Below, one piece after another: positions 13,427 to 46,863 of a stretch of DNA of 63,988 nucleotides. A program made the translations under genes and the position numbers. The notes under the pieces are model-generated. The model had not been told where the DNA came from and searched no databases. It saw only the letters and a list, made by a program, of their open reading frames with translations. This DNA comes from Candidatus Atribacteria bacterium (GTDB taxonomy: Bacteria > Atribacterota > Phoenicimicrobiia > Phoenicimicrobiales > Stramentimicrobiaceae): contig JAKQEP010000029.1 in the NCBI GenBank assembly GCA_029556475.1, positions 1 to 63,988 on the forward strand. Direction: 5' to 3'. Positions within the stretch are counted from its first letter, which is position 1, and each line of letters starts with the position of its first letter.

Positions 13427-14176
13427 ATGAGATTAAAAAATTGTAATGCAATTATAACAGGGGCTACTGGTGGTTTTGGCAGAATGATTACACAAACTTT
13501 TTTTCGTGAAGGAACAGATAAGATCGCTTTAATAGATATAAATGGAAAAGCTCTTGGGGAATTTTCAAAAGAGTTGAAAGAAAAAGGATTTAATGCTATT
13601 CCTTATAAAGTAGATGTTTCCGACGAACATGAAGTGGAAGAAATATTGTATCAGATATTGGATAGTTTTAAGAAAATTGATATTTTAGTAAATAACGCTG
13701 GAATAACCCAGTCATTACCAATTCAAGATGTACCAGTAGAAGATTGGGAAAGAACGATAAATGTCAATCTAAAGAGTGCTTTTCTTTTTTGTAAATATAT
13801 TATAACGAATATGATAGAGAATAAATATGGAAAAATAATTAATATTTCTTCTATATCAGGACAAACAGGCAGGCCTACTTCAGTTCAATATTCAACTTCC
13901 AAAGCTGGAATTATTGGTTTAACAAGAAATTTGGCTTTTCAGGTAGCCAAATATGGAATTAATGTGAATGCAGTTGCTCCCGGGCCAATTGTTACACCAA
14001 TGTTAGAAAAAAGTTTTACTAAAGAAATTTCTGAAAGTCTCAAAGCTACTATTCCATTTATCAGGCAAGGAACTGCGCAAGATATTGCAAACGCTGTGTT
14101 GTTTCTTTCATCAGAAGAAGCTAGTTGGATTACTGGACAGGTTTTATCCGTTAATGGCGGAGCATTTATGGGTTGA
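13427..14176 (+). CDS. SDR oxidoreductase, FabG-like
   Basis: Motifs TGATGGFG, NNAG and YSTSK, with a C-terminus VNGGAFMG. A strong SD (AGGAGG) lies upstream. Confidence 0.85.
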   Translation: MRLKNCNAIITGATGGFGRMITQTFFREGTDKIALIDINGKALGEFSKELKEKGFNAIPYKVDVSDEHEVEEILYQILDSFKKIDILVNNAGITQSLPIQDVPVEDWERTINVNLKSAFLFCKYIITNMIENKYGKIINISSISGQTGRPTSVQYSTSKAGIIGLTRNLAFQVAKYGINVNAVAPGPIVTPMLEKSFTKEISESLKATIPFIRQGTAQDIANAVLFLSSEEASWITGQVLSVNGGAFMG

Positions 14177-14238
14177 AGCAATTAAAAGAATAAATGAATA
14201 CCATCATTTTAAGTTTTGATAAAATTGAAGGGGGTTCT

Positions 14239-15081
14239 ATGAAGCACTACTCAAAAAAATTGATTGCAAGGCTAAATGATAATGCTAATCAACTTAGGAT
14301 AGATGCCTTGCGGATGATTTATGAAAGAGGGGCTGGTCACCCTGGTGGTTGCCTGTCTTGTTCGGAAATCATTAGTGCATTGTATTTTCACTATCTTAAA
14401 ATTGATCCCCAGAGGCCTCACTGGGAAGATAGAGACCGTTTTATTCTGAGTAAAGGCCATGCTTCTGCTATATTGTATGCTGCTTTAGCACGAAGAGGTT
14501 TTTTTGATATAAAAGAATTACAAACATGGGGTCATCCTAATAGTAGATTGCAGGGACACCCTGATAGATTAAGGACTCCGGGCATTGAAATGACTACTGG
14601 TACTTTGGGGCAGGGACTTTCTATTGCCAGTGGTATAGGGCTAGCGGCGAGATTACTACAACAAAAATGGCGAATTTACATTCTCATGGGTGATGGAGAA
14701 TGCCAAAGTGGAATTGTATGGGAAGGAGCGATGATGGCTTCAAAATACTGCCTATCAAATATTACAGCTATTATTGACTATAATGATGTTCAATTGGATG
14801 GTTTCTGTCATGAGATTATGCCACTAGAACCATTTATTAAAAAGTGGCAATCGTTCAATTTCGAAGTGGTTGAAATTGATGGTCATAGTGTCAAAGAAAT
14901 TCTTCAAGCTCTTGACGTGACAAAAGAAATACATGATAGACCTAGTGTAATTATAGCTCATACTATCAAAGGAAAAGGAGTATCTTTTATGGAGAATGAA
15001 GCTAAATGGCATGGCCTAGCACCTGATGATGAACAATACAGGCAAGCCATTACAGAACTAAAAGGAGAAAAGAATGGATAG
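14239..15081 (+). CDS. Transketolase, N-terminal (TPP-binding) subunit, copy 1
   Basis: Motifs GHPGG, SKGH and GDGE...N for TPP and metal binding. The start is set at ATG 14239, which lies behind GAAGGGGG, rather than at the ORF-track start 14194. Confidence 0.85.
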   Translation: MKHYSKKLIARLNDNANQLRIDALRMIYERGAGHPGGCLSCSEIISALYFHYLKIDPQRPHWEDRDRFILSKGHASAILYAALARRGFFDIKELQTWGHPNSRLQGHPDRLRTPGIEMTTGTLGQGLSIASGIGLAARLLQQKWRIYILMGDGECQSGIVWEGAMMASKYCLSNITAIIDYNDVQLDGFCHEIMPLEPFIKKWQSFNFEVVEIDGHSVKEILQALDVTKEIHDRPSVIIAHTIKGKGVSFMENEAKWHGLAPDDEQYRQAITELKGEKNG

Positions 15082-16024
15082 AATAATATCTATGCGGCAT
15101 TCATACGGAGAAGCCCTATTGGATTGCGGTATTAAGAATAAAAAGATAGTAGTTGTTGTAGCCGACGTCTCCTCATCTGTAAAGACTGATTTTTTTGAAA
15201 AAAGATTTCCAGAAAGATTTTTCAATGTGGGAATTGCTGAACAATGTTTAGTTAATGTTGGAGCGGGACTTTCGTTAGAAGGATTTATTCCTTTTGTAAA
15301 TACTTTTGCAGGATTATTGTTACGTTCTTTTGAGCAAATAAGAACATGTGTGGGATATGCCGAAACCAATGTTAAGTTGGTAGGCGGGTATGCTGGAATA
15401 TCAGATTATAAAGATGGGGCAACTCATTATTCAATATGTGATATAGCTGTAATGCGCTCCATACCAAATATAACAGTGGTCGTACCAGCAGATGCAACTG
15501 AAACCAAAAAACTAGTATGTGAAATTGTAAAATGGTCTGGTCCAGTATATCTAAGAATTAGCAGAGCTGAAACTCCAGTAATATTTGGTGATAACCATAA
15601 AGTTGTTGTTGGTAAAGGCCAAATTATTAGAGAAGGTGACGATCTTACGATTATAGCAGTAGGTGTGATGGTAGGAAGAAGTCTACTAGCGGCAAATATT
15701 TTAGAACAAGAAGGGGTTAAAGCTAGAGTTATTAATATGCCCACTATTAAACCCTTTGACAAATATTTAATTATTGAAACTGCTCAAAAAACAGGTGCCA
15801 TTGTAACAGCAGAAGAGCATTCCGTTATAGGTGGATTAGGTTCAGCTGTTTCTGAATGTTTAAGTCAGTCATATCCTGTTCCCATAGAATTTATTGGAAT
15901 AAAAGACTTGTTTGTTGAAACTGGGACTAGTCATGAATACTTGTTAGACCATTTTGGACTATCTGTAAATGATATTATTGAAGCTGCAAAGAAAGTAATA
16001 AAAAGAAAAGGAAATATTAAATAA
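15074..16024 (+). CDS. Transketolase, C-terminal (pyrimidine-binding) subunit, copy 1
   Basis: Motifs FNVGIAEQ and DGATH. An 8-nt overlap with the N-subunit gene suggests translational coupling. Confidence 0.85.
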   Translation: MDRIISMRHSYGEALLDCGIKNKKIVVVVADVSSSVKTDFFEKRFPERFFNVGIAEQCLVNVGAGLSLEGFIPFVNTFAGLLLRSFEQIRTCVGYAETNVKLVGGYAGISDYKDGATHYSICDIAVMRSIPNITVVVPADATETKKLVCEIVKWSGPVYLRISRAETPVIFGDNHKVVVGKGQIIREGDDLTIIAVGVMVGRSLLAANILEQEGVKARVINMPTIKPFDKYLIIETAQKTGAIVTAEEHSVIGGLGSAVSECLSQSYPVPIEFIGIKDLFVETGTSHEYLLDHFGLSVNDIIEAAKKVIKRKGNIK

Positions 16025-17048
16025 TGGAACGGTCACATGGATAATTTAATTTAAATATTTGTAAAAAAATTAAAGAAAGAGTATTTTATTTGAAATAGAT
16101 TTAAGCAGTAAAAAGATTGATATTTGATTAAACTTTAATGAAAGATATATTAACGACAAAGATATCTTTATTTAATAATAATATAAAATTAATATTAAAA
16201 TAGAATTACTATATAACATATGCCCCAATATTTCCCTCTTTTCTTCCCAGGTTTTTGAACTGAATATTAATTCCTATTATTTATAAAATATCCATCTTGG
16301 ACAATTTCTCCTGACTGGAAACTAGAATGGATTGAAATTTGAAGGTTATTGAAAAAATGGATTAAAGAAGATTTGCAGGAATAATTATTAAAGATAATAT
16401 TTATAAATTTATTTTTCTATTTTAATTAAAATGGAGTTACTTTTAGCGATAATTCAAAATTATAGAGTCTGGATATTTTAATACTCCTTTTTAAGATTTA
16501 AGAGAACATATTTTTGGTTAGTGTTTTCTCTTTATTTTTACCATATTTCTGGTAATATTCACCAGGAGCACGGCATCCAATACTGAATGGCAATAGTCTT
16601 GGGTATTTGTCAATCTACATATCTGCAGAAGTTCTTCTAGTGTTATAGTTATAACAGCCTTTTGTTAAAGAATCTTTTTGATGTTAACTGGCTGCCAAAG
16701 CTCAGTTTGATACCTTGCACATGTTATGTATTGTAGAGGGAAGTACTGTTGACTAGCAATCGTTAATCTAGATTAAAAAGGATATTTTTCTCAATCTTTT
16801 CTTTACCCCTTCCAAAAAATATTTAGTACCACCTTCTTTCTTAATTTTTAGTAACAATAATACTATTTTAGAGTATTTTATTTTTTCTCTACAATAAATA
16901 TTTTTTCTAATCTATCTGTAAAAAAGATCTTTTTTCCAAATTCAATATGGTTAACTAGCTTATAACTAAACTAATTTGGACTACCTTTTATCTGAATTTT
17001 AGTAATCAACGATTATTGAATACTTTTTTGACAAGGATATTTGGGATG

Positions 17049-17099
17049 TTGACAAAAAGCGAATTATTTGTTATTCTCCCAAGTATGGGAACGTTTTCT
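17049..17099 (+). promoter_or_regulatory. Candidate promoter (TTGACA-17-TATTCT) followed by a LacI/CcpA-like half-palindrome TGGGAACGTTTTCT
   Basis: The -35 is TTGACA (17049-17054), the spacer is 17 nt, and the -10 is TATTCT (17072-17077). A palindromic AACGTT core site sits at 17086-17099. This lies about 770 nt upstream of the second tkt pair. Confidence 0.25.
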
Positions 17100-17856
17100 G
17101 TCTCTAAATACTACATGTTTTAAATTAATTCTAACTTTGTTATCTTTAATAAGATGTTATAGTTATAAGTTTTTACAAGAACAATAGAATGTTGTAATAA
17201 ACAGCTTTAAATAAAGTAAATTTCTACTAATAACTTAGAATTTGTATTTAATAACATACACTAACAATAAATAATGCTGATTCCTTTCTTTCGAATTGTG
17301 GAAATAATGATGATTCACTAATATAGTTCATCTTGTAACTTGTCTGACGGTTTAGATATGTTTAAAAGCACTTCAATACATAGATTAGTAATCTTATAAG
17401 AACATATTGTTGAATCTTTCTATTATTATATTATTCCTATATATCTGGGCTTAATCTTTTATAATTTAATATCATGAAAAATAGAAATGGCTAATAGTCA
17501 TATTTGCATTTTCCCTTTGTGATAAATTTGTTGTTCTTATCAATAAAGATTGACCTAAAGAATGCCAATTCCTATAATCTTAGTTTTTTGGATTTACAAA
17601 GTCAATGGCGCTGCCATTTTCTTGTTGGCACATACATTGGCAAAGCTGAAATTATTACAGATAGAAAATCCAGACCACTTTCAGATTTAATACAAGCCTT
17701 TGATTGTGCCTACATAAATAATGTCCTGAATAATTTTTTAAATATTAAGATTTAACCTTATTTAAATTTAGACATTAACATCACGGTTTTACTAATTGTT
17801 TAGAAATTGAAAAAATGGTTTAAACTATATTAAGGACGGTGAATTAATAATAAACA

Positions 17857-18693
17857 ATGAGTACAATTAAAGAATTAGAAAAAAAGGCAAGAATTATTCG
17901 TCTTGGTATCTTAGAGGCAATTGGAGAAGGACAAAAGAGTCATATAGGCGGTTCTATGTCTTCAGCAGATTTGGTCACTGCTCTATATTTTCACAAAATG
18001 AGGCATACTCATGAAAACCCCAAAGACCCTAAACGGGATCGACTTATATTTAGTAAAGGCCATGCAGTATTAGCCCAGTATGCTGCTTTGGCTGAATGTG
18101 GCTATTTTCCTAAAGAAGAGTTAAAAAAAACTAAGACATTAGGCTCTTTATTGCAAGGTCACCCTGAGATACGAACTCCAGGTATTGAGGCAAATACAGG
18201 TTCACTAGGCCAAGGTTTATCAATTGGTCTAGGGATGGCCTTAGGAGCTAAATTAGATCATAAGAGCTATAAAGTTTATGTAATTTTGGGGGATGGAGAG
18301 TTGGCAGAAGGACAAATATGGGAAGCAGCAAATACAGCTAGCTTTTATAAAGTAGATAATTTAATAGCTATTGTAGATTATAACAAGCTACAAGCGGTAG
18401 GTTTTTTAAAAAAGAGATATGATTTAGGAGATATAAGAGGTAAATTTAACATTTTTGGCTGGAAAACATTCGAAATTGATGGTCATAATATGGAAGAAAT
18501 TGTTAATACACTGGACGAAATAGATAGTATTAAAGGTTTGCCTTCTGCTATAATCGCTCACACAATAAAAGGCAAAGGTATTTCTTTTGCTGAGAATAAT
18601 CCTATTTTTCATAATGCACCTCTTTCCAGGGAACAAATTGAGAAAGCAAAAAAAGAGATTCAAGGAGAAACAATCTTGGAGGTGAAAAATTGA
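17857..18693 (+). CDS. Transketolase, N-terminal subunit, copy 2
   Basis: Motifs SKGH and GDGE, with a GQGLS block. It is clearly divergent from copy 1 in a by-eye alignment. Confidence 0.85.
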   Translation: MSTIKELEKKARIIRLGILEAIGEGQKSHIGGSMSSADLVTALYFHKMRHTHENPKDPKRDRLIFSKGHAVLAQYAALAECGYFPKEELKKTKTLGSLLQGHPEIRTPGIEANTGSLGQGLSIGLGMALGAKLDHKSYKVYVILGDGELAEGQIWEAANTASFYKVDNLIAIVDYNKLQAVGFLKKRYDLGDIRGKFNIFGWKTFEIDGHNMEEIVNTLDEIDSIKGLPSAIIAHTIKGKGISFAENNPIFHNAPLSREQIEKAKKEIQGETILEVKN

Positions 18694-19628
18694 TGAATAA
18701 TCAAGAGAATTTAAGGCAAGCCTACGGTAAGGAATTATTGAAATGGGCAAAAAAAGATGAGCGTATCATTGCCTTAGATGCAGATTTATGTGGTTCCACA
18801 CAAACAGTATTCATTGAGAAAGAAATTCCCCAAAGATTTTTTGAAATGGGCATTGCCGAACAAAATATGACTTCAGTTGCGGCAGGATTAGCCCTGGTGG
18901 GTAAGATACCTTTTGTAAATTCTTTTGCAGTATTTTCTGTTGGGCAGGCTTATAATCAGATCAGACAAGGAATTGCTCTTCCAAGATTGAATGTAAAAAT
19001 TGTTGGTTCCAGCTGCGGATTATCTGATTTTGGAGACGGTGCAACTCATCAATCTATTGAGGATATTTCAATTATGCGGGCTATTCCAAATATGACAATC
19101 ATTGTACCAGTAGATGCTATTGAAACTAGAAAGGTAGTGGGAGAAGTGATTAAATATAAAGGGCCAGTATATATTAGAATCAATAGAAATGATTTACCAA
19201 ACGTTACTAAAGAATCTGATCAATTTAAAATTGGAAAAATGCAAAAGATCACTGAGGGTAAGGATGTAGTTATTTTTGCTTGTGGACTAATGGTATCCCA
19301 GTCTCTAAAAGCAAGAGAAATTTTATTGCCTCAAGGAATTTCTTTAAGAATTATTAATGTTAGTACAATAAAGCCTTTAAATAAAGAGGAAGTTATAAAA
19401 TTCTCGAGAGATATTAAAAAAGTGATTACAGCTGAAGAAAATAATGTAATTGGTGGTTTAGGAGGGGCTATCTGTGAAGCTTTAGAAGATCAAGAGATGA
19501 AAATTACAAGGATAGGAATTAATGATGAATTTGGTCAATCAGCCAGTTGTTATGAAGATTTAATTAAATACTACCATCTTACTCCAGAGGATATTATTAC
19601 AAAGGTCAAGAATTTAATTAACCAATAA
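18690..19628 (+). CDS. Transketolase, C-terminal subunit, copy 2
   Basis: Motifs FEMGIAEQ and DGATH. It overlaps the N-subunit gene by 4 nt. Confidence 0.85.
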   Translation: MMNNQENLRQAYGKELLKWAKKDERIIALDADLCGSTQTVFIEKEIPQRFFEMGIAEQNMTSVAAGLALVGKIPFVNSFAVFSVGQAYNQIRQGIALPRLNVKIVGSSCGLSDFGDGATHQSIEDISIMRAIPNMTIIVPVDAIETRKVVGEVIKYKGPVYIRINRNDLPNVTKESDQFKIGKMQKITEGKDVVIFACGLMVSQSLKAREILLPQGISLRIINVSTIKPLNKEEVIKFSRDIKKVITAEENNVIGGLGGAICEALEDQEMKITRIGINDEFGQSASCYEDLIKYYHLTPEDIITKVKNLINQ

Positions 19629-19682: not shown

Positions 19683-20465
19683 ATGGTTTTTAGCGAAATT
19701 ATGTATAATTTTAATAAAGGAGTAGTTTTAATTACTGGTGCTGCTCGAGGAATTGGTGAAGCTGCAAGCCATGCTTTTGCTCAATCTAATACAAAATTAG
19801 TATTAGTTGATATAGATTTGGAAGGATTAAAAAACTTAAAAAATCAACTCATTTCTAAGATGGACCAAAAAGATATTTTTATTATTAAAACCGATGTTTC
19901 CGATCCAAATGACGTAGAGAAAATGACTGAACAAGCAATAAAATATTTTGGTGAAATAAATATTCTTTTTAACAATGCTGGCATTAATAATCGTATTCCC
20001 CTTGCTGATGTTTCTTATGAAATTTGGAAAAAAATGATGAGTGTTAATTTGGATGGCATATTCTTAATTGCCCAATCAGTTGGTCGGGAGATGATAAAAA
20101 GAAGAAAAGGAAAGATAATCAATACAGCTTCCATGTCTGGTTTTATTGTAAATGAAAATCTTAATGATGGAGTTTATTGTACAACAAAAGCTGCAGTTGT
20201 TATGCTTACCAAAGCTTTAGCTGTGGAATGGGCAGAATATAATATACAGGTAAACGCTATTGCTCCCGGTTATACCGAAACCCCTTTAGTAAAAAGGTTA
20301 TTAGAAAATCCGAAAATACATAAGGAATTGGTTGAGCGAACACCTATGCATAGATTAGCTGAACCCCATGAAATTGCTAAAGCTGTGTTATATTTAGCTT
20401 CTTCAGATACAACCTATATTACTGGTCACACATTAGTGATCGATGGTGGATATATTATTTGGTAA
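19683..20465 (+). CDS. SDR oxidoreductase, polyol/ketose reductase-like
   Basis: Motifs TGAARGIG, NNAG and YCTTK. The C-terminus IDGGYIIW resembles sorbose/mannitol-type SDRs, from memory. Confidence 0.8.
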   Translation: MVFSEIMYNFNKGVVLITGAARGIGEAASHAFAQSNTKLVLVDIDLEGLKNLKNQLISKMDQKDIFIIKTDVSDPNDVEKMTEQAIKYFGEINILFNNAGINNRIPLADVSYEIWKKMMSVNLDGIFLIAQSVGREMIKRRKGKIINTASMSGFIVNENLNDGVYCTTKAAVVMLTKALAVEWAEYNIQVNAIAPGYTETPLVKRLLENPKIHKELVERTPMHRLAEPHEIAKAVLYLASSDTTYITGHTLVIDGGYIIW

Positions 20466-25328: not shown

Positions 25329-25364
25329 GAAGCCTGGTAGGGCTTGAAAGTCCTATCAGGCTTC
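25329..25364 (+). terminator. Intercistronic stem-loop after the SBP gene (partial terminator or mRNA stabiliser)
   Basis: GAAGCCTGGTAGG / CCTATCAGGCTTC forms a 13-bp stem with one G-U pair and a 10-nt loop. A T-rich tract follows. Confidence 0.5.
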
Positions 25365-25404
25365 TTACCATATTTTTGAAAATTTAAAAAGAGGAAATTA
25401 AAAC

Positions 25405-26289: not shown

Positions 26290-26344
26290 GAAATAACATA
26301 TAGTGTTAGTAATAATGTTTTGAACAGAATAGGAGTATTCACTA

Positions 26345-27355: not shown

Positions 27356-27373
27356 CTGGAGGATAGGAAAATA

Positions 27374-28156
27374 ATGGATTTATTAAGAACTGAAAATTTA
27401 ACCAAAAAATTTGGTGAATTAATTGCAGTAAATGATGTCAATATTTCAATACAAGAAGAAGGTATCTTATCAATTATTGGGCCAAATGGTGCGGGTAAAA
27501 CAACTTTTTTTAATCTCCTGACAGGATATTTAAAACCAACTAGTGGAAAAGTATTTTTGAAAGGTGAAGATATAACTAATTTGGCTCCATATGATATTGT
27601 TCACAAGAAATTATCAAGATCTTTTCAAATAGCCAGTTATTTCCCTGAGTTCACAATATTTGAAAATATTCAAATGGGTGTCTTTAATCGGCTTGGGTAC
27701 AGTTATAATTATTTTGCCAACATCAATAAGCTCAAAGATGTGCATAAAGAAACAGAAAAATACATGAAGATGTTAGATTTAACTGAACAGAAAGAAATGA
27801 AAGCCAAGTTTTTATCCCATGGTGACAAAAAAATACTTGACATTGCTATGTGTTTGACTGTGGAGCCGGAAATTTTACTATTAGACGAGCCTACTAGTGG
27901 TGTCTCAGGAACTGAAAGTACAAAAGTATTTAATTTTATTAAAAATTTATCAAAGAAAATGAAAATTGTCATTGTTGAACATGATATGGATATTGTTTTT
28001 TCAATATCTGATAGGGTTGTTGTTTTAGCCCAAGGCTCAATATTGGCTGATGGAACAGTTGAAGAAGTTAGAAAAAATGAAGACGTCCAGAAAGCTTATC
28101 TGGGAGGATTTACAGAAGGAGGGTACGAGGATGCTATCTCTGGAAAAAGTAAATAG
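27374..28156 (+). CDS. ABC ATPase, LivG-like
   Basis: Walker A GPNGAGKTT and an LLLDEP block. A short C-terminal tail follows AYLGG. Confidence 0.9.
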   Translation: MDLLRTENLTKKFGELIAVNDVNISIQEEGILSIIGPNGAGKTTFFNLLTGYLKPTSGKVFLKGEDITNLAPYDIVHKKLSRSFQIASYFPEFTIFENIQMGVFNRLGYSYNYFANINKLKDVHKETEKYMKMLDLTEQKEMKAKFLSHGDKKILDIAMCLTVEPEILLLDEPTSGVSGTESTKVFNFIKNLSKKMKIVIVEHDMDIVFSISDRVVVLAQGSILADGTVEEVRKNEDVQKAYLGGFTEGGYEDAISGKSK

Positions 28157-28844
28157 TTGGTATGGAGAAGCACAAGTATTGAGAAATGTTGATTTAAATG
28201 TCAAAGAAGGAGAAATTGTAGCACTGTTTGGTCGTAATGGTGTTGGGAAAACAACTACATTAAGAAGTATAATGGGACTCACTCCTCCTCTTGGTAAGGG
28301 TAAAATTGTTTTTAAGGATGAAAACATTTTAGGGTTGCCTCCTTATAAAATTGCTAACAAAGGTATTGGTTTTGTGCCTGAAGACCGTAGGATTTTCCCG
28401 TATTTAACAGTAAAAAGAAATTTAGATACTGGTAAGAAAAGCACTCATAAGAGTAACTCAAAGACGAAATGGGATTATCAAAAGGTTTTTCAATTATTTC
28501 CTAAATTGGAAATATTACAGGATTCTTTGGGTAAGAATTTAAGCGGTGGAGAGCAACAAATGTTAACAATAGCGCGTACATTGATGGGTAATCCTGAATT
28601 GCTTTTATTAGACGAACCCTCTGAGGGATTAGCCCCTTTGATTGCAAGAGATGTAATTAATTTAGTTCTAGAATTGAAAAAAGAATATGGATTAAGTATT
28701 TTAATCATTGAACAATTTTCTCCAAGGGTATTAGAATATGCAGACCGTTGTTATGTTATGGATATGGGAAAGATTGTTTTTTGTGGATGTTCCGAAGATT
28801 TAAGGAAAGATGTAAAATTACAAAAAGAGTTGTTAGGGGTGTAG
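28131..28844 (+). CDS. ABC ATPase, LivF-like
   Basis: Walker A GRNGVGKTT and signature LSGGEQQML. The start is set at ATG 28131 (MLSLEKV), behind GGAGGG, and overlaps livG by 26 nt. The ORF-track start 28050 would run inside livG. Confidence 0.85.
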   Translation: MLSLEKVNSWYGEAQVLRNVDLNVKEGEIVALFGRNGVGKTTTLRSIMGLTPPLGKGKIVFKDENILGLPPYKIANKGIGFVPEDRRIFPYLTVKRNLDTGKKSTHKSNSKTKWDYQKVFQLFPKLEILQDSLGKNLSGGEQQMLTIARTLMGNPELLLLDEPSEGLAPLIARDVINLVLELKKEYGLSILIIEQFSPRVLEYADRCYVMDMGKIVFCGCSEDLRKDVKLQKELLGV

Positions 28845-28866: not shown

Positions 28867-30120
28867 ATGAAAGGAAATTTTAAAAATATGTTTAAATCTG
28901 ATTCTGTTTGGGAGTTTAAAATTGCCGGTAGAATTAAGTTTGGTTTAGGTGCAGTTGAAGAGCTTAAAAGTGATTTAAAAGGATTTCCAGGAAATAAAGT
29001 AATACTAATAACAGATGAAGGAATTAAAAAAGCAGGTATCTTGGACTACATAACAGATATTATAAAGGATTTTGACATCTCAATTTTTGACCAAGTATCT
29101 TCTGACCCTGAAATAAAAAATGTTGAAGATGCACTAGCATATACAAAAAAAAATAATGGTAATATAATTATAGGTTTAGGTGGGGGAAGTCCAATTGATG
29201 TGGCAAAAGTAGTTTCCATTGTAGCAAAATATGGTGGTGATATTAAGGACTATATAGCTCCACCTAATGGCAAAGGTAAGCCTATAGAAGGACCTGGTTT
29301 ACCAATGATTGCTATTCCCACAACCTCAGGGACTGGTGCAGAAGTATCACCTGCAGCAGTGTTAACTCTTACTGAAAAGGAATTAAAAGTTGGTATTTCA
29401 AGCCAAATGCAAAGACCAGCCTTAGCAATTGTTGACCCACTTTTAACCATTTCAGTTCCACCACATATTACAGCTTCGACGGGAATCGATGCTCTATGTC
29501 ACGCTATTGAAGCTTATGCTACTAAGAGATTTGATCAGAAAGAAAAACCAAAAACTCCTGAAACTCGCCCTATTTATGGAGGTACTACTATCTTTACAGA
29601 CCTCTTTGCTGAAAAAGCGATAGAACTAGTTGCAGGAAATTTAAGGAAAGCATTTAATAACGGACAAAATGTAGAGGCTAGGACAAACCTTTCTCTTGCC
29701 AGTCTTATGGCTGGTATAAGCTTTACCAATGCTGGTTTGGGTGTAGTGCATGCCATGTCATTCCCTTTGGGTGGTAAATTCCATATTCCTCATGGCATAG
29801 CCATTGCAGCAACGTTGCCTGCAGTGATGGAATTCAATGCTGCTAGTAATTTTGAGATATTTAGCAATATTGCTATTCTAATGGGTGAAAATATCGATGG
29901 ATTATCTGATAGGGAAGCAGCATTAAGATCTGCTAAAGCAGTTAAGGAACTATGTAGAGATGTTGGTATACCTAATATTTCATCGTTTGGAATTAAAAGG
30001 GAGGATCTACCCTTAATGGCATCGGAAACAATGAAAATCCAAAGATTGTTAGCTGGTAATCCTCGTATAGTATCTGTGGAAGATGCTTTAAAAATATTTC
30101 AGAATGCTTTAGAAGGATAA
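28867..30120 (+). CDS. Iron-containing (group III) alcohol dehydrogenase
   Basis: Motifs GGGSPIDVAK and metal-binding His motifs HAIEAY and HAMSFPLGGKFHIPHG. An alternative start is ATG 28888. Confidence 0.9.
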   Translation: MKGNFKNMFKSDSVWEFKIAGRIKFGLGAVEELKSDLKGFPGNKVILITDEGIKKAGILDYITDIIKDFDISIFDQVSSDPEIKNVEDALAYTKKNNGNIIIGLGGGSPIDVAKVVSIVAKYGGDIKDYIAPPNGKGKPIEGPGLPMIAIPTTSGTGAEVSPAAVLTLTEKELKVGISSQMQRPALAIVDPLLTISVPPHITASTGIDALCHAIEAYATKRFDQKEKPKTPETRPIYGGTTIFTDLFAEKAIELVAGNLRKAFNNGQNVEARTNLSLASLMAGISFTNAGLGVVHAMSFPLGGKFHIPHGIAIAATLPAVMEFNAASNFEIFSNIAILMGENIDGLSDREAALRSAKAVKELCRDVGIPNISSFGIKREDLPLMASETMKIQRLLAGNPRIVSVEDALKIFQNALEG

Positions 30121-30213: not shown

Positions 30214-30876
30214 ATGAATAAGAAAAAAATTGCTATTATTGAAACTACTTTGGTTCCATTGCAAGATTTAAGGGAATTATTTTTTGAAATAATTCCTGAA
30301 GCAGAAATTATTAGTTTTGTTGATGACAGCATGTTAAAAGAGGTAATTTCTGCTGGCAAACCAACTCCGAACGTAATTAGGCGCTATTGCTCATACGCGG
30401 TAAATGCTGAAAGTATTGGTAGTAACTTAATATTTAATCAATGCTCATCTGTTGGAGAGGTGGCAGATATAGCTCAACAAATGGTTAATATACCAATTTT
30501 TAAAACTGATTTACCAATGGCTCAAGAAGCAGTTGAAAAAGGTACAAAGATTGGAGTAGTAGCTACACTAAACACCACACTAAATCCTACCAGTAGATTA
30601 ATTCAAAAAGTTGCCGATGAAAAGGGTAAAAAAATTACTATAATACCAAAATTAGCTGAAGGAGCGTTTGAATTGGTCAGCAGGGGTGACAAAGAAGGGC
30701 ATAACAAACTTGTCATTAAAACGATTCAAGAATTAGCTAGCTCTGTAGACATAATAGCTTTAGCCCAGGGAAGTATGGCTGTGCTAATTCCAGACCTAAA
30801 GGGTGTTGATATTCCTGTATTGTCTAGTCCACGATCAGGTGTATTAGGTGCAAAAGCACTCTTAGAAACATTATAA
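30214..30876 (+). CDS. Asp/Glu/hydantoin-racemase-fold protein (function unknown)
   Basis: 220 aa. The blocks IAIIETT..., NQCSSVGE, IGVVATLNTTLNPT, LAQGSMA and VLSSP match the short Asp/Glu racemase family proteins as I recall them. Confidence 0.6.
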   Translation: MNKKKIAIIETTLVPLQDLRELFFEIIPEAEIISFVDDSMLKEVISAGKPTPNVIRRYCSYAVNAESIGSNLIFNQCSSVGEVADIAQQMVNIPIFKTDLPMAQEAVEKGTKIGVVATLNTTLNPTSRLIQKVADEKGKKITIIPKLAEGAFELVSRGDKEGHNKLVIKTIQELASSVDIIALAQGSMAVLIPDLKGVDIPVLSSPRSGVLGAKALLETL

Positions 30877-30899: not shown

Positions 30900-31916
30900 A
30901 TGAGTATTAAAGTGGCAGTTGTAGGATATGGAACAATAGGGCAACGTTTAGCTGATGGTGTTGCCTTACAAAAAGATATGGAATTAGTGGGAGTTGTTGA
31001 TGTTGCTCCTACACTAGCTGTAAGAGCTTTGGTAGAAAAGGGAATGCCTTATAACTTCTACTGCGCAGTGCCTGAAAATATTCCTCAATTGGAAGAAATC
31101 GGAGTACCTGTATCAGGCACAATGGATGACATTTTAAAAAAAGTAGATATCGTTTTGGATGCGACTAGTGCTGGGGTTGGTAAAAAGAATAAAGAAATTT
31201 ACCAAAAGTACAATTTACCTGCTGTTTTCCAGGGAGGAGAAAAAAATGAAATTGCTGATGTGTTCTTCCATGGATATGCAAATTACGAAAAAGGATTAGG
31301 GCAGAAATATTTAAAATTAACATCCTGTAATACTACTGGATTAATAAGAGCGGTTGATTGTTTAGATAGAGAAGTAGGTGTAGAAAAAGTGGCCATTACC
31401 ATAATTAGACGAGTTGCTGATCCTGGTGATTACTTTAGAGGATTGACAAATGCCTTGCAGGTAGATAAGGCACCTAGTCATCAAGCAGTTGATTTGATGA
31501 CCATTATGCCTCATATTGATGCTACTGGTATTCTGGTTCATACCCCTGTTACTCATGGCCATATTATTACCATAGTTGCTACTCCTAAGAAAAAAATAAC
31601 CCCTGAAAAAACAATAAATCTTTTTTCTGAACATCCTAGAATTAGAGTTGTTAGTATAGATGAAGGTTTTTTAGGAAATGCTTCATTATTTAAATATGCA
31701 CGTGATTTAGGTAACCCACGTGGTGATATGTACGAAATTGCAGTCTGGAAAGATACAATGGTCACTTCAGGAGATGATATTATGTTTGCAATTAATATAC
31801 CACAAGAAGCGGTTGTTATACCTGAAACCATTGATGCAATTAGAGCTAGCTTAAAAATGCAAATAGATAGGTTAGAGGCAGTTGGTGTTACCAATAAATA
31901 TTTAAATATGAAATAA
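30900..31916 (+). CDS. gap: Glyceraldehyde-3-phosphate dehydrogenase, type II (archaeal type)
   Basis: It aligns along its full length, by eye, with archaeal GAPDH as remembered. Shared blocks are VGYGTIGQR, FQGGEK, catalytic SCNTTGL, RRVADP, PSH, EIAVW and QEAVVIPETIDAIRA. Confidence 0.85.
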   Translation: MSIKVAVVGYGTIGQRLADGVALQKDMELVGVVDVAPTLAVRALVEKGMPYNFYCAVPENIPQLEEIGVPVSGTMDDILKKVDIVLDATSAGVGKKNKEIYQKYNLPAVFQGGEKNEIADVFFHGYANYEKGLGQKYLKLTSCNTTGLIRAVDCLDREVGVEKVAITIIRRVADPGDYFRGLTNALQVDKAPSHQAVDLMTIMPHIDATGILVHTPVTHGHIITIVATPKKKITPEKTINLFSEHPRIRVVSIDEGFLGNASLFKYARDLGNPRGDMYEIAVWKDTMVTSGDDIMFAINIPQEAVVIPETIDAIRASLKMQIDRLEAVGVTNKYLNMK

Positions 31917-31931: not shown

Positions 31932-33191
31932 ATGATTGATGGAATATATACTCTTGATGATATCGATGTCGCGGGCAAGACTATCCTTGCCCGCTTTGAT
32001 ATGAACTCCCCCTTGGACTCAAAAACAAAAGAACCAGTAGATATTACTAGAATCGAAGAAAGCATACCCACTATAAAAGAGTTAATAGAAAAAGGAGCAA
32101 AAACAATTGTTTTAATTCATCAGGGAAGTGATATAGAGTATCAAAACTTTGCATCTGTGAGACCTCATTCAAAAATTTTATCAAAATTGTTGAATAAAAC
32201 AGTTGATTATATTGATGATATATGCGGACCAGCTGCCAGAGAAAAAATATGCAATATGAGAAATGGGGAAATTCTGATACTGGAGAATGTAAGATTTATG
32301 GCAGAAGAAATGACTCTATTTGAAACTAAGTTAAATCTTACTCCTGAGGAACAGTCTAAGACTATAGTTGTACAAAAATTATCTCCTTTAGCTCATTTCT
32401 ATTTAAATGACGCATTTTCTGCTGCTCATCGTTCCCAGCCAACCCTCGTTGGCATGGAAGAATTATTACCATCAATAATGGGTAGATTAATGGAAAAAGA
32501 AATTTCTTCATTAGATAGATTGTTAAGAAATCCTGAAAAACCATGCATTTTCATTTTAGGTGGGGCAAAAATACAAGATGCCTTTTTAATGCTTAATACT
32601 ATTTTAGATAATAATGTTGCTGATTTCGTACTCGCAGCAGGGCTCTTTTCTCATGTCATTTTATTAGCCAAGGGTATTCGGTTAGGGAAACCCTCAGAAG
32701 ATTTAATTAAGAAGAAAAATTTAGAAGAATTTATTGAAAAGTCAAAAAGTGTAATAAATAAGTACAGTGATAAGATTAAATTGCCTGTAGATTTTGGTTA
32801 CATTGATTCGGGTAATAGAAAAGAATTGATTATTGAAGAATTACCTTTAAGTAATAATACTTTGATGGACATAGGGAATAAAACTATAAATGAATACGAG
32901 AAAATAATAAGTAAGGCAAAAACCATATTTTTCAACGGTCCTGCTGGAGTCTTTGAAGAAGAAGCGAGTGAATTAGGTACAAAATCTTTGCTAACTGCAA
33001 TTGCCAGTAGTAATGCTTTTTCAGCGGTAGGGGGTGGTGACACCATCACAGCTTTAAATAAATATAGATTATTAAATCGAATGTCTTATGTCAGTACTGG
33101 TGGTGGTGCTTTGATTAGATTTTTAAGTGGAGAAGAATTACCGGTAATTAAAGCTTTGAAAAAGTCTGCAAAAAAGTTTCCTTTGTTATAA
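31932..33191 (+). CDS. pgk: Phosphoglycerate kinase, archaeal-type
   Basis: Blocks RFDMNSPLD, ILENVRF, NDAFSAAHRSQPTLVG, MEKEI, LGGAK, GGGD, STGGGA and GEELPVIKAL resemble archaeal PGKs rather than the bacterial RVDFNVP type. Confidence 0.85.
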   Translation: MIDGIYTLDDIDVAGKTILARFDMNSPLDSKTKEPVDITRIEESIPTIKELIEKGAKTIVLIHQGSDIEYQNFASVRPHSKILSKLLNKTVDYIDDICGPAAREKICNMRNGEILILENVRFMAEEMTLFETKLNLTPEEQSKTIVVQKLSPLAHFYLNDAFSAAHRSQPTLVGMEELLPSIMGRLMEKEISSLDRLLRNPEKPCIFILGGAKIQDAFLMLNTILDNNVADFVLAAGLFSHVILLAKGIRLGKPSEDLIKKKNLEEFIEKSKSVINKYSDKIKLPVDFGYIDSGNRKELIIEELPLSNNTLMDIGNKTINEYEKIISKAKTIFFNGPAGVFEEEASELGTKSLLTAIASSNAFSAVGGGDTITALNKYRLLNRMSYVSTGGGALIRFLSGEELPVIKALKKSAKKFPLL

Positions 33192-33347
33192 ATGACTTGT
33201 TTTTATTTCATTAGAATGTAAAAATCACAATAAACGAGTATAAACAAGTTAAGATTTTGGTTGTATATATAATTGAAGTTGATGGATATTAGATGGTAAC
33301 TTGAATAATCAGCAATTGTTACAAAGAAATGTTGAGGAGAGGTAATT

Positions 33348-34625
33348 TTGAAAACTATTAATATTGAACTAAAATACGGTGATACAAGAATCAATTTTTA
33401 TTTGGAAAATAAGAATATTATAAACATATTGACTGCTAACCAGGAAATACCCTTAAAAGAACCTTCAATTAAGCTAGAGAATTTGTTGGAAAACCCAATC
33501 AATAGCCCTTCTCTTACACAATTGATAAAAGATAAAAAAGCCAAAAAGATTCTAATTATAGTTAATGATATTACCAGGCCCACACCATATAACATCCTTC
33601 TGCCCCCACTACTGAAGAAGCTAGAGGAGATTGGCATCAAAAGAGACAATATTACTTTTCTTATTGCCACAGGAGCGCATCGGGGAAATACAGAAGAGGA
33701 AGATATTAAGACATTTGGCAAAGAGCTGGTATCTTCCTACCAATTTGTCAATCATAGCTGTGATGATGACAGATTGATAGACTTAGGCCAATTAAAAAGT
33801 GGTAATCATCTTTTTGTAAACCCCCTGATAGAGGAGGCAGATTTTCTCATTACCACTGGCGTCATTGTCCCTCATTACATAGCAGGTTTCTCAGGTGGCA
33901 GAAAATCAATCCATCCTGGAATCTGTGGGAGAGAGACCATAGAGAAAAATCATTCCCAGATGGTTCACCCCAAAGCTACTACCGGTAATCTTATAGGTAA
34001 TCCGGTGCATGAGGAGATGCTGGAGGCAGCCCAAAGGGTCCATGTCGATTTTAATATCAATACCATTACCGATGAGGATGGTAATATCATAGATATTGTG
34101 GCAGGTGAATTGACAGAATCCTGGCAAAAAGGAGTAGAGATCTCTAAGAATACCTATATCACCCCCATCAAGGAGCAAGCCGATGTAGTCTTTACCAGCG
34201 CAGGAGGATATCCCAAAGATATCAATATCTATCAAGCTCAAAAGGCATTGGATAATGCCTTCCATGCCGTTAAACCTAGTGGTACCATTGTCTTGGTGGC
34301 AGAATGTAAAGAAGGTATCGGTAACACCATCTGCGAACAGTGGATAGAGGAGGCTCATTCCATACGGGATATAGAAGAACGGCTCAAGAGATGTTTTATC
34401 CTAGGAGGTCACAAGGCCTATGCTATTGCCAAGGTAGCCAAAGAAGTAGATATTATTCTCTTATCCTCCCTCAGTAAATATCTGACTAAAAAACTATTCA
34501 TGAAGCCAGCAGAAAATATAAAGCAGGCTGTTAAACTGGTTCATGAAAAACACGGTAAAGATTTTAGAAGCTATATCATACCATCTGGGAATAATGTGCT
34601 TCCCCAAATCCAAAATATAATATAA
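33348..34625 (+). CDS. LarA-family nickel-pincer (NPN)-dependent 2-hydroxyacid racemase/epimerase homolog
   Basis: TTG start. Motifs NDITRPTP, ATGAHRG, PHYIAGFSGGRKS (the NPN-tethering Lys context) and downstream His residues are present. Confidence 0.85.
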   Translation: MKTINIELKYGDTRINFYLENKNIINILTANQEIPLKEPSIKLENLLENPINSPSLTQLIKDKKAKKILIIVNDITRPTPYNILLPPLLKKLEEIGIKRDNITFLIATGAHRGNTEEEDIKTFGKELVSSYQFVNHSCDDDRLIDLGQLKSGNHLFVNPLIEEADFLITTGVIVPHYIAGFSGGRKSIHPGICGRETIEKNHSQMVHPKATTGNLIGNPVHEEMLEAAQRVHVDFNINTITDEDGNIIDIVAGELTESWQKGVEISKNTYITPIKEQADVVFTSAGGYPKDINIYQAQKALDNAFHAVKPSGTIVLVAECKEGIGNTICEQWIEEAHSIRDIEERLKRCFILGGHKAYAIAKVAKEVDIILLSSLSKYLTKKLFMKPAENIKQAVKLVHEKHGKDFRSYIIPSGNNVLPQIQNII

Positions 34626-46862: not shown

Positions 46863-46863
46863 A

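Follow-up and report, generated by a model that had tools for sequence, protein, structure and literature searches.

Transketolase requires a ketose with a D-threo head, as is present in 2-deoxy-5-keto-D-gluconate, the product of IolB. For plants and Gluconobacter, it has been proposed that transketolase splits 5-ketogluconate and so forms tartrate semialdehyde. Among LarA homologs, LarAH6/Mar2 is a malate racemase with a Km of 0.38 mM (PMC7583248). No G3P activity with NAD or NADP was measured for the type II GAPDH of the bacterium P. thermosuccinogenes (PMC6543838), an enzyme that may lie outside the clade of the one described here; poor expression is a possible cause of this negative assay. 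Here, we analyzed a 63,988-nucleotide stretch (the window) of a Candidatus Atribacteria genome and compared it with related loci. We propose, with a probability of about one half, that it carries two co-inherited modules, a malate-semialdehyde GAP2/PGK module (module B) and a TPP-enzyme feeder (module A), together with hydroxy-carboxylate import.

A strain-variable catabolic island

Window positions 13427-34625 form the main part of a ~25-kb accessory catabolic island (9311 to ~34080) in this Atribacterota genome. Positions 9311 to ~34080 are missing (blastn) from L180, a relative with 98% SerRS identity; nucleotide identity is 95% up to 9310 and 93% from 35626, and in the diverged junction between (34081-35625) only fragments matching 34081-34194 and 34453-34610 are left over from the 3' end of LarA. 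The missing block and the LarA remnant indicate a true accessory island, and the block-wise absence from a close relative, together with the recurrence of its parts in other genomes, argues against a chance juxtaposition.

The left end of the island encodes a LacI-family regulator (9455-10477, minus strand; NCBIfam and Pfam), a family with genes beside GAP2-PGK at 14/53 genomic loci, and a short-chain dehydrogenase (SDR) resembling 3-hydroxybutyrate dehydrogenase (11019-11780, minus strand; TIGR01963, 322 bits, cutoff 307). Two AT-rich stretches, each of 26% GC, are noncoding: 11827-13426 (1.6 kb, 42-51 stop codons in each frame), for which blastx and Rfam gave no match, and 16025-17856 (1.8 kb, 42-56 stop codons per frame), which is identical across the independent assemblies L095-L097. 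Beyond the right end lies a forward-strand block (34977-38299; NCBIfam) that encodes a GntR/FCD regulator (34977-35651, within the diverged junction), both subunits (alpha/beta) of a class I fumarase and a malic enzyme. The island-less relative has these genes in identical order, with a diverged GntR allele (67% nucleotide identity over a single aligned 199-nt stretch; blastn); fumarase and malic enzyme belong to the conserved backbone and not to the island.

The original prediction, made from the bare sequence, had listed the genes of 13427-34625, and Pfam and NCBIfam place them all as listed except for the SDR count and the regulators. Two of the three SDRs that it assigned to one strand lie there, but the third is the upstream minus-strand gene; the LacI and GntR regulators that it set at the edges both exist but lie outside. 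It makes no mention of the two AT-rich noncoding stretches. Its remark that sugar kinases, PTS components, isomerases (in the sense of classical sugar isomerases), aldolases and glycoside hydrolases are absent holds for ORFs of at least 80 amino acids at 9.4-35.6 kb.

The GAP2, PGK and malate racemase genes

The first enzyme of module B is a bacterial type II GAPDH-like protein (GAP2; 30900-31916, forward strand; NF003251, 403 bits). It retains the catalytic SCNTT motif and carries the substitutions K33D, H194Q and H299P, which are invariant across 83 bacterial GAP2 sequences relative to four archaeal structures. The change of Lys33 to Asp is an NAD-type signature, compatible with a catabolic direction. 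The next ORF encodes a PGK-like kinase (31932-33191, forward strand; Pfam PGK, 364 bits) with the archaeal P. horikoshii protein (2cun) as its best PDB match. The phosphate ligand Arg65 (human numbering) is Ser in the window and Asp, Ser or Gly in 75/75 GAP2-linked PGKs; the remaining 3-PG ligands are retained. We propose that GAP2 is an NAD-dependent phosphorylating D-malate-semialdehyde dehydrogenase and that the PGK-like kinase would convert D-malyl phosphate and ADP into D-malate and ATP. The third ORF is predicted to encode a LarAH6-type nickel-pincer malate racemase (Mar; 33348-34625, forward strand; NF052593, 531 bits, cutoff 500), with Mar2 (6d6z) as the best PDB match; the same cutoff is passed by 8/10 other GAP2-linked LarAs.

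Just upstream of GAP2 lies an ORF for a single-Cys member of the Asp/Glu racemase superfamily (AGrac; 30214-30876, forward strand), which scores only 45 bits in Pfam and has no relative in NCBIfam or PDB. The motif NQCSSVGE is retained, and LAQGSM replaces the second catalytic Cys. AGrac adjoins GAP2-PGK in L025, L030, L058, L075, L085, L088-L091, L100-L104 and other loci, and is a candidate isomerase or epimerase acting one step ahead of the dehydrogenase.

At least 519 species carry relatives of GAP2/PGK (70-94% identity), whose neighbors include LarAH6 malate racemase, malic enzyme or D-malate/tartrate dehydrogenase, split transketolase, iolBDEG, or carboxylate transporters. Of the 53 loci that have 5 kb or more of sequence to each side, PGK adjoins GAP2 in 52, and partners nearby are Mar (30/53), transketolase (26/53), iolBDEG (25/53), malic enzyme (21/53) and, never alongside Mar, a tartrate/D-malate dehydrogenase (3/53; TIGR02089, 483 bits, cutoff 470). 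Counting against the proposal, some pairs have no Mar, malic enzyme or transketolase close by, and Mar and TTC are both missing in 20 loci. The gene order in T. thermosaccharolyticum and Carboxydocella is GAP2-PGK-TK-IolB-IolD-IolE-IolG(-LarA), with no IolC, IolJ or IolA within 10 kb, while the non-iol loci have TRAP or Tct transporters. Given the D-threo head of the IolB product, stereochemical reasoning suggests that transketolase cleavage would leave (R)-3-hydroxy-4-oxobutanoate, which on oxidation would yield D-malate, and a D-malate product explains why a racemase or D-malate dehydrogenase accompanies GAP2-PGK. At L092, GAP2-PGK-Mar is paired with a GABA-type aminotransferase, which would give the same aldehyde from 4-amino-3-hydroxybutyrate.

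It is conceivable, but in our view very doubtful, that the same architecture handles tartrate semialdehyde (2,3-dihydroxy-4-oxobutanoate): a 5-keto-aldonate made by the SDRs, e.g., 5-keto-D-gluconate, would be cut by transketolase, GAP2/PGK would yield tartrate and ATP, and LarA would be an epimerase. Consistent with this, the two SDRs inside the island body (SDR1 and SDR2) have sub-threshold matches to the gluconate 5-dehydrogenase model (204-214 bits); the dehydrogenase that takes the place of Mar and malic enzyme in three loci is of the tartrate dehydrogenase family; GAP2-PGK occurs in L088 and L163 with enzymes typical of four-carbon acid-sugar pathways, namely PdxA-like and beta-hydroxyacid dehydrogenases; and an AGrac homolog adjoins a DUF1537 acid-sugar kinase in L115. 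However, the IolB product of the many iol loci is 2-deoxy and would give malate semialdehyde, the window LarA scores above the cutoff of the malate racemase equivalog, malic enzyme is a frequent partner, and the hydratase beside the island scores as a fumarase (395 bits, cutoff 276) and not as an L-tartrate dehydratase (165 bits, cutoff 365).

The TPP enzymes, dehydrogenases and importer

All genes assigned to module A are on the forward strand. SDR1 (13427-14176; Pfam adh_short), the putative feeder-module dehydrogenase, has a 71% orthologue adjoining Fe-ADH in L184 and a relative (75% nucleotide and 77% protein identity) adjoining Fe-ADH in L101. It is followed by split transketolase 1 (TK1, 14194-16024; N subunit 14194-15081, C subunit 15074-16024) and split transketolase 2 (TK2, 17857-19628; N subunit 17857-18693, C subunit 18690-19628), which are 43% identical to each other (both Pfam). 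The phosphate-binding His416 (human numbering) is Tyr in TK1 and Ser in TK2; the TK2 orthologues of L184-L187 also have Ser, and 32/32 GAP2-linked transketolases have Asp. With only 38-49% identity to the iol-linked family (TKN7/TKC7), Tyr or Ser in place of Asp, and Asp424 kept, the window transketolases are not orthologues of TKN7/TKC7, which counts against the proposal. The non-phosphorylated substrate of the original prediction fits the loss of this His from both transketolases and of the phosphate-binding Arg from PGK, and it fits the TK2-type enzymes of L185 and L187, whose neighbors are Tct/TRAP carboxylate transporters and a hydroxy-acid dehydrogenase.

SDR2 (19683-20465; Pfam) has 72-73% orthologues at the same position in L184 and L186, where TK2 is syntenic with SDR2-E1-E2. 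The following ORFs encode an aco/PDH-type complex (20502-23741; Pfam and NCBIfam) of E1alpha (20502-21524), E1beta (21521-22510) and lipoyl E2 (22503-23741), with 67-74% orthologues in L184 and L186; the window contains no E3 or lipoylation gene. Next comes a Liv-type ABC importer (24113-28844; Pfam) with a Peripla_BP_6 substrate-binding protein (SBP, 24113-25315) followed by LivH, LivM, LivG and LivF (25405-28844: permeases 25405-26289 and 26345-27355, ATPases 27374-28156 and 28131-28844), and then an Fe-dependent alcohol/aldehyde oxidoreductase (Fe-ADH, 28867-30120; Pfam) that reaches no NCBIfam equivalog threshold and has orthologues in L184 (73%) and L101 (92%).

The composite set is syntenic in other genomes, in differing order, and the neighborhood conservation on which the original prediction had staked its hypothesis is thus found in L186 and L184. 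The order is ME-Mar-...-TK-TK2-SDR2-E1a-E1b-E2-AFOR-SBP-LivH-LivM in L186 (51-79% amino-acid identity; Liv orthologues 74-77%), TK2-SDR2-E1-E2-AFOR-FeADH-SDR1 in L184, Liv-FeADH-SDR1-TK1(pseudogene)-ALDH-AGrac in L101, and Tct-ZnADH-E1ab-E2-AGrac-GAP2-PGK-ME-Mar in L089-L091.

The E1/E2 set could be an ordinary acetoin or pyruvate complex, and on a wider version of this reading the whole cluster would consist of independent units that are merely neighbors: a butanediol/acetoin operon formed by SDR2-E1ab-E2, in which Fe-ADH would reduce acetaldehyde, a branched-chain amino-acid ABC importer, pentose-phosphate transketolases, a transferred gluconeogenic archaeal-type GAPDH/PGK and a malate racemase. 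PDH models are the best for E1alpha and E1beta, and E1beta exceeds the PDH subfamily cutoff. The window E1alpha is 52-59% identical to the E1alpha adjoining GAP2-PGK in L074 and in L020 (52%) of Clostridium magnum, a species with a characterized acetoin dehydrogenase system. AFOR and Fe-ADH come after SDR2-E1ab-E2 in L184 and L186, an arrangement that suits acetaldehyde disposal and an ordinary butanediol/acetoin operon; a sigma-54 AcoR-like activator precedes the L186 block, and the PDB entries nearest to the SBP are named as binders of branched-chain amino acids. We nevertheless consider independent units distinctly unlikely. The parts stay together despite the differing order in L184, L186, L101, L089-L091 and the window, and are jointly lost in L180; the phosphate-binding residues of PGK and the transketolases are lost; in L074, E3 and LplA-LipA flank GAP2-PGK; and a bacterial type II GAPDH, assumed to belong to this clade, had no G3P activity (PMC6543838). 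As for the importer, the window has a second Liv system, adjoining oxoacid:ferredoxin oxidoreductase/PTB/kinase genes, whose SBP is only 25% identical to that of the island and which is more likely to be the amino-acid importer.

A narrower alternative, which we also hold to be unlikely, accepts module B but makes E1ab/E2 a pyruvate dehydrogenase converting malic-enzyme pyruvate to acetyl-CoA, the aldehyde coming from a C4 acid, e.g., 3,4-dihydroxybutyrate, through Fe-ADH/SDR oxidation and AGrac isomerization. The L089-L091 set would then be a complete linear route with every gene explained, the minimal loci L088, L163 and L171 hold only a transporter, SDR, AGrac, GAP2 and PGK, and Fe-ADH has a sub-threshold match (243 bits) to 4-hydroxybutyrate dehydrogenase; the E1beta score points the same way. 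Yet L074 and L020 carry E1/E2/E3 by GAP2-PGK without an aldehyde-making AGrac, transketolase or aminotransferase, and two unrelated E1/E2 lineages (38% and 52-59% identical to the window E1alpha) have been recruited. Outside the window's lineage, GAP2 has either transketolase or E1/E2 beside it but never both, a pattern that would be expected if the two were alternative enzymes for C2 removal.

A proposed two-module route

Under the two-module proposal, the Liv-type system of module A would bring in a non-phosphorylated hydroxy-carboxylate, from which the SDRs and Fe-ADH would form a ketol or aldehyde by oxidation. The two split transketolases and/or the aco-type E1/E2 would then remove a C2 unit by TPP chemistry, passing it to an acceptor in the former case and releasing it as acyl-CoA in the latter. 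The leftover C4 aldehyde would enter module B, where AGrac would probably isomerize or epimerize the ketol or aldehyde directly before the dehydrogenase, a TPI-like step. GAP2 would oxidize and phosphorylate an alpha-hydroxy aldehyde, most likely D-malate semialdehyde (3-hydroxy-4-oxobutanoate), to D-malyl phosphate; the PGK-like enzyme would transfer the acyl phosphate to ADP, yielding D-malate and ATP; and the LarAH6 racemase would convert D-malate to L-malate, which would continue through the core fumarase and malic enzyme.

The conservation of module B is observed, and we infer that it functions as a carboxylate analog of lower glycolysis, with similar GAPDH- and PGK-like steps but a distal carboxylate in place of the phosphate. 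The feeder function of module A, the roles of E1/E2 and AGrac, and the nature of the imported substrate are likewise inferred. As a whole, the original interpretation is partly supported; its suggestion that gap, pgk and LarA handle the aldehyde and acid products agrees with our analysis and can be made far more specific.

The GAPDH/PGK module, which would turn a carboxylated aldehyde (D-malate semialdehyde) into D-malate and ATP, is widespread and, it seems, so far undescribed. As judged from gene neighborhoods, GAPDH, PGK and LarA appear to be the conserved core of a module present in hundreds of species and no odd add-on, and the "archaeal" GAPDH and PGK of the window probably act outside glycolysis, in a malate-semialdehyde module instead.

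Gene content, loss and synteny of the island

Every gene named in the original prediction was present in our ORF listing and in Pfam and NCBIfam scans, and the single-strand run on the plus strand from 13427 to 34625 was confirmed. Two of the three SDRs assigned to it lie inside (SDR1, 13427-14176; SDR2, 19683-20465), whereas the third, a minus-strand gene at 11019-11780, precedes the run, and the LacI (9455-10477) and GntR (34977-35651) regulators that had been placed at its edges both fall outside. On the plus strand, SDR1 is followed by a split transketolase (TK1, 14194-16024), a 1.8-kb noncoding gap, a second split transketolase (TK2, 17857-19628), SDR2 and an E1alpha-E1beta-E2 set (20502-23741), and then by a Peripla_BP_6 binding protein (SBP), LivHMGF, an Fe-ADH, a single-Cys Asp/Glu-racemase-fold protein (AGrac, 30214-30876), a type II GAPDH (GAP2, 30900-31916), a PGK (31932-33191) and a LarA (33348-34625). 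Immediately 3' of these genes are GntR, a class I fumarase of two subunits and a malic enzyme; an assignment of the hydratase as L-tartrate dehydratase was rejected, fumarase being favoured by NCBIfam. The absence of sugar kinase, PTS, aldolase and glycoside hydrolase genes was borne out.

The otherwise dense island also holds two noncoding, AT-rich stretches (11827-13426 and 16025-17856; 1.6-1.8 kb, 26% GC), which the original prediction omitted and which have the same sequence in independent assemblies. Six-frame translation revealed no pseudogenes in them (42-56 stops per frame), blastx against every ORF in the retrieved loci gave no match, and a search for repeats returned nothing meaningful and no long repeat. 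No RNA was detected in either stretch with Rfam at E<=0.1, the sole match being a T-box leader elsewhere (38379-38598, plus strand), upstream of archease-RtcB-SerRS, which scores 88 bits against a gathering score of 93; if real, it would place the RNA-ligase pair under co-regulation with the seryl-tRNA synthetase by tRNA charging. A promoter and terminator scan gave counts not above the shuffled expectation, and operon boundaries were not set from it.

The window corresponds to the JGI metagenome contig Ga0116237_10001152, and an Atribacterota MAG encodes a seryl-tRNA synthetase identical to that of the window. A close relative without the island (L180, a 689-kb contig whose SerRS is 98% identical) aligns colinearly with the window to the left and right of it, at 95% identity up to 9310 and 93% from 35626. 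Only about 800 bp separate its Metallophos gene from its GntR-fumarase-malic enzyme genes, and within this interval two fragments match the 3' end of the window LarA at 82-86%, together forming an 89-codon ORF (L180 3481-3752 versus window 34081-34610). This LarA remnant indicates that the island was deleted in L180, not inserted in the window. The stretch from 9311 to about 34080, including LacI, the upstream SDR and on through most of LarA, is therefore an accessory block lost by L180, and the fumarase and malic enzyme are part of the conserved backbone. GntR is present as diverged alleles (271 amino acids in L180 and 224 in the window). A second strain-specific block of approximately 8.8 kb (44868-53712), also missing from L180, encodes an M19 dipeptidase, a TPR protein, an AstE/AspA-like deacylase and a five-gene Opp/Dpp-type peptide ABC transporter.

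The original prediction had been staked on conservation of the gene set in relatives, and such synteny is present, with varying gene order. One locus (L186) carries malic enzyme (74% identity), LarA (61%), aconitase-like genes, a sigma-54 activator and a first split transketolase, followed by TK2 (79%/74%), SDR2 (73%), E1alpha (73%), E1beta (74%), E2 (51%), an AFOR, SBP (74%), LivH (77%) and LivM (75%). Another, adjoining gyrA (L184), encodes TK2, SDR2, a second SDR2 paralogue, E1alpha, E1beta, E2, AFOR, Fe-ADH (73%), SDR1 (71%) and AFOR. A close relative (L101) carries LivG, LivF, Fe-ADH (92%), SDR1, a TK1 orthologue decayed to a pseudogene by a 620-bp deletion and frameshifts (3944-5171), and an aldehyde dehydrogenase adjoining AGrac; feeder enzymes are being swapped between strains. 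In three further loci (L089-L091; GAPDH 91% identical) the order is TctBCA, Zn-ADH, E1alpha, E1beta, E2, AGrac, GAPDH, PGK, malic enzyme and LarA. One Tct-type variant (L089, 11816-15227) has a glycyl-radical enzyme (803 amino acids, PFL2/dehydratase family, under all equivalog cutoffs) and its activase in place of LarA. Finally, AGrac, GAPDH, PGK, malic enzyme and LarA stand together in L100 (GAPDH 93%) directly downstream of an IS1595-family transposase (2085-2879), which fits transfer of the module as a cassette. The genes are repeatedly re-ordered yet kept together, and they are lost together, which speaks for the composite set being functionally coupled.

The type II GAPDH-PGK pair and its gene neighbours

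GAP2 scores 403 bits against the type II GAPDH model NF003251 (cutoff 185) and 313 bits against TIGR01546 (cutoff 233), and the window PGK scores 364 bits against Pfam PGK, its best solved relative being the archaeal enzyme of P. horikoshii (2cun). The pair has the same folds as the type II GAPDH (1cf2, 2czc, 1b7g, 2yyy) and PGK (2cun) of archaeal lower glycolysis, with the catalytic Cys motif SCNTT conserved in GAP2, and would follow the same logic, in which an aldehyde is converted to an acyl phosphate and then yields ATP. However, GAP2 differs from the archaeal enzymes by three changes, K33D, H194Q (SHH to SHQ) and H299P, which are clade-invariant signatures in a comparison of 83 bacterial sequences with archaeal ones. 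In 83/83 bacterial sequences Asp replaces Lys33 of the archaeal NADP site, an NAD-type signature in keeping with a catabolic role. In the only published bacterial assay, the homologue from Pseudoclostridium thermosuccinogenes had no G3P activity with NAD or NADP, and according to the same paper there is no functional evidence for type II GAPDH in bacteria (PMC6543838).

The window PGK falls short of the NCBIfam PGK equivalog cutoff, and its basic 3-phosphate patch is incomplete. Asp23, Asn25, Arg38, His62, Arg122 and Arg170 are conserved in all 75 GAP2-linked PGKs, so that the carboxylate, hydroxyl and nucleotide ligands are all kept. The T. maritima enzyme (1vpe) keeps Arg65 of the phosphate patch (human numbering), and that of P. 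horikoshii (2cun) has Lys there. In the 75 GAP2-linked sequences this residue is replaced by Asp in 55, by Ser in 18, including the window PGK, and by Gly in 2; an acidic residue is found at position 65 or 66 in all 75.

When a single genome was scanned for each species, type II GAPDHs 70-83% identical to that of the window were detected in at least 519 species, with carriers in Bacillota, Spirochaetota, Atribacterota, Chloroflexota, Kiritimatiellia, Victivallales, Desulfovibrionaceae and Poribacteria. GAP2 neighbours were labelled by BLASTP in 80 loci plus L007 and L008, of which 53 are flanked by 5 kb or more on each side. PGK is adjacent to GAP2 in 52 of these 53 loci, and the remaining neighbours include LarA (30/53), split transketolase (26/53), malic enzyme (21/53) and at least two of IolB, IolD, IolE and IolG (25/53). 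A tartrate/D-malate dehydrogenase (TIGR02089, 483 bits, cutoff 470) is present in three, all of them without LarA. In contrast to lower glycolysis, the island-type genes are found in catabolic operons with malate enzymes and not with glycolytic genes.

The window LarA exceeds the cutoff of the LarAH6 malate racemase model (NF052593, 530.9 bits, cutoff 500), as do 8 of 10 GAP2-linked LarAs, and Mar2 (6d6z, 297 bits) is its best match among solved structures. LarAH6/Mar2 has been identified by experiment as a malate racemase (Desguin et al. 2020, PMC7583248), and among LarA groups that of the LarAH6 malate racemases is said to be the largest (PMC11770544). The LarA beside the iol cluster of T. 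thermosaccharolyticum (L007) was considered as the crystallised Mar2 and rejected because the N-termini differ, and the experimental result thus applies to the family and not to the L007 gene. Within the 64 kb of the window, no larB, larC or larE gene was detected. The window LarA is not set apart from LarAH6/Mar2 by sequence; what is new is the proposed physiological source of D-malate.

We propose, at slightly less than even odds (a probability of roughly 0.45), that bacterial type II GAPDH and PGK constitute a non-glycolytic, widespread (at least 500 species) module for substrate-level phosphorylation that acts on a non-phosphorylated aldehyde, has interchangeable front ends, and provides the physiological reason for LarAH6. 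Island status and synteny are firmly established; the function of the module appears well supported by the comparative evidence, while the feeder chemistry is largely inferred. D-malate semialdehyde would undergo phosphorylating oxidation to D-malyl phosphate, and phosphoryl transfer would then yield D-malate and ATP. Such a product would account for the malate racemase or D-malate-oxidising dehydrogenase that accompanies GAP2-PGK, and the route to it for the malic enzyme downstream and for there being no need of a kinase. We found no description in the open-access literature of a natural malate-semialdehyde/malyl-phosphate step of substrate-level phosphorylation, of a transketolase-dependent inositol route, or of a function for bacterial type II GAPDH.

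Candidate front ends and substrates

A first front end would be a route from myo-inositol that depends on transketolase and needs no kinase. An operon of T. thermosaccharolyticum and Carboxydocella encodes a sugar ABC transporter, GAPDH, PGK, TK-N, TK-C, IolB, IolD, IolE and IolG, with LarA directly after IolG in Carboxydocella and after a second IolG-like gene in T. thermosaccharolyticum. In many Bacillota, Spirochaetota and Chloroflexota the iolG-E-D-B genes are joined to split transketolase, type II GAPDH, PGK and LarA (L007, which is the T. thermosaccharolyticum locus, L008, L018, L024 and about 20 more loci); several iol-linked loci end with a PFK-family gene. IolG, E, D and B are thus shared with the canonical pathway of Bacillus subtilis (IolG, E, D, B, C, J, A), but loci of the L007/L008 type carry split transketolase, GAP2, PGK and LarA instead of the IolC kinase, IolJ aldolase and IolA. 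Pfam gene calls found none of these three within 10 kb in L007 and L008, the two loci to which this absence applies, as the labelling set for the other loci held no such references. The window itself is also unlike the canonical pathway in having no iol gene.

The IolB product, 2-deoxy-5-keto-D-gluconate, has a CH2OH-CO-CHOH head with the D-threo configuration that transketolase requires. From this established stereochemistry, removal of C6-C5 by transketolase would leave (R)-3-hydroxy-4-oxobutanoate, which corresponds to D-glyceraldehyde 3-phosphate with a carboxylate replacing the phosphate ester.

Transketolase_N, Transket_pyr and Transketolase_C domains (Pfam) were found in both split pairs of the window, whose best PDB match is the C. 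hydrogenoformans split transketolase 6yaj and which do not reach the NCBIfam transketolase equivalog cutoffs. Among the phosphate ligands of transketolase (human Arg318, Ser345, His416 and Arg474), His416 is replaced by Tyr in TK1 and by Ser in TK2 and its orthologues, and the other three are kept. The GAP2-linked C-subunits show His416 to Asp together with Asp424 to Asn in 32/32, and both TK1 and TK2 keep Asp424. Orthology of the window transketolases to the iol-linked family (TKN7/TKC7) was rejected, given 38-49% identity and Tyr/Asp and Ser/Asp at positions 416/424; these residues define them as separate subfamilies, likewise without the phosphate-binding His.

A second front end would be aco-type ketol cleavage by E1/E2, yielding an acyl-CoA and an aldehyde. 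This is one of two remaining readings of these genes, the other being an ordinary acetoin or pyruvate complex. E1alpha (382 bits), E1beta (382 bits, exceeding a subfamily cutoff of 321) and E2 (340 bits, below 445; lipoyl and catalytic domains) have the standard domains of AcoABCL/PDH, and these PDH-like scores argue for the ordinary complex. So do the SDR directly upstream of E1, as in butanediol/acetoin operons, the AFOR and Fe-ADH genes that follow in L184 and L186, and the AcoR-like, sigma-54 activator of L186. In contrast to AcoABCL/PDH, however, E1alpha is below the PDH equivalog cutoff of 394, no E3, LplA or LipA gene is present in the window, and E1/E2 is always fused to split transketolase (L184, L186) and repeatedly located beside GAP2-PGK (L020, L074, L089-L091). 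Ketol cleavage is favoured by L020 and L074, in which E1/E2(/E3) adjoins GAPDH-PGK and no other aldehyde-generating enzyme is present, the L074 pair lying between E3 and LplA-LipA. It is also favoured by the recruitment of two different E1/E2 lineages, and by the finding that transketolase and E1/E2 do not occur together beside GAPDH outside the window's lineage.

Omega-transamination may provide a third front end, since in L092 GAPDH-PGK-LarA-malic enzyme is joined to a GABA-type aminotransferase and a deacylase, which would act on 4-amino-3-hydroxybutyrate to give the same aldehyde. The last candidate is a TPI-like single-Cys isomerase, AGrac, which matches Pfam Asp/Glu/hydantoin racemase at 44.7 bits and has no solved relative in a PDB search or curated one in NCBIfam. 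Of the two catalytic Cys that true racemases have on opposite faces, the first (NQCSSVGE) is conserved in AGrac, and the position of the second reads LAQGSM in all 9 aligned members. Homologues with at least 70% identity are always beside GAPDH-PGK, as are about half of those at 45-50%, others being found, for example, beside a DUF1537 acid-sugar kinase. Outside the window, AGrac loci lack transketolase and iol genes, and in many cases a TRAP/Tct transporter and a single dehydrogenase are all that they contain (L088, L163, L171), which suggests that AGrac may make the aldehyde. We speculate that it is a single-base ketol-aldehyde isomerase or epimerase, performing the TPI-like step of a glycolysis analogue.

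The Liv importer of the island is complete by Pfam (Peripla_BP_6 SBP, two BPD_transp_2 permeases and two ATPases), and its SBP scores 55 bits against a LivJ-type model with a cutoff of 477; a PDB sequence search with it was uninformative. A hairpin with an 18-bp stem (25327-25366, plus strand) is located directly 3' of the SBP gene, the usual arrangement where a binding protein is made in excess over its permeases. The second Liv-type SBP of the window, only 25% identical, adjoins oxoacid:ferredoxin oxidoreductase, PTB and kinase genes, and its system is the likelier branched-chain amino-acid importer of the two. This backbone region (53710-63408) encodes an acyl kinase, PTA/PTB, a three-subunit 2-oxoacid:ferredoxin oxidoreductase and the second Liv-type ABC transporter, a set typical of amino-acid fermentation. 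For the island, the Tct/TRAP transporters found on the same catabolic core in relatives point to a carboxylate substrate, candidates being 2-deoxy-hexonates, 3,4-dihydroxybutyrate, tetronates and 5-keto-aldonates.

Relation to known pathways and significance

The cluster shares parts with each of its nearest described systems, which are lower glycolysis with archaeal GAPDH/PGK, the canonical inositol pathway, the sulfo-transketolase pathway, the acetoin dehydrogenase system and the LarAH6 racemases, and it matches none. Four-carbon acid-sugar pathways reportedly employ DUF1537 kinases, PdxA2 and LtnD-type dehydrogenases, with the sugar acid phosphorylated first and DHAP as the end product. Some related loci resemble them in joining GAP2-PGK or AGrac to PdxA-like, beta-hydroxyacid dehydrogenase or DUF1537 genes and in carrying TRAP/Tct transporters, whereas the window has none of these three gene types. 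In the sulfo-transketolase pathway, by which sulfoquinovose is degraded (PMC11659671), the split transketolase SqwGH acts on 6-deoxy-6-sulfofructose and an Fe-ADH serves as sulfoacetaldehyde reductase. The split transketolases of the island would likewise act on a non-phosphorylated, anionic ketose, and the island also encodes an Fe-ADH, for which the sulfoacetaldehyde reductase match is sub-threshold (247 bits). Unlike that pathway, however, the island has no sulfoquinovosidase, isomerase or sulfonate exporter; its anionic group would be a carboxylate, and the leftover aldehyde would be oxidised with a gain of ATP instead of being reduced and excreted.

If the proposed module is correct, it would represent a new substrate-level phosphorylation reaction for anaerobic metabolism, and hundreds of bacterial "type II GAPDH" and "PGK" genes would have to be re-annotated. 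It would also imply a kinase-free fermentation of myo-inositol, in which ATP is gained rather than spent before cleavage, and would explain from where nickel-pincer malate racemases obtain their D-malate, thereby giving LarAH6 the physiological reason that it has lacked. For Atribacterota, a phylum with few cultured members, fermentation of hydroxy acids or acid sugars would then be a strain-variable trait.
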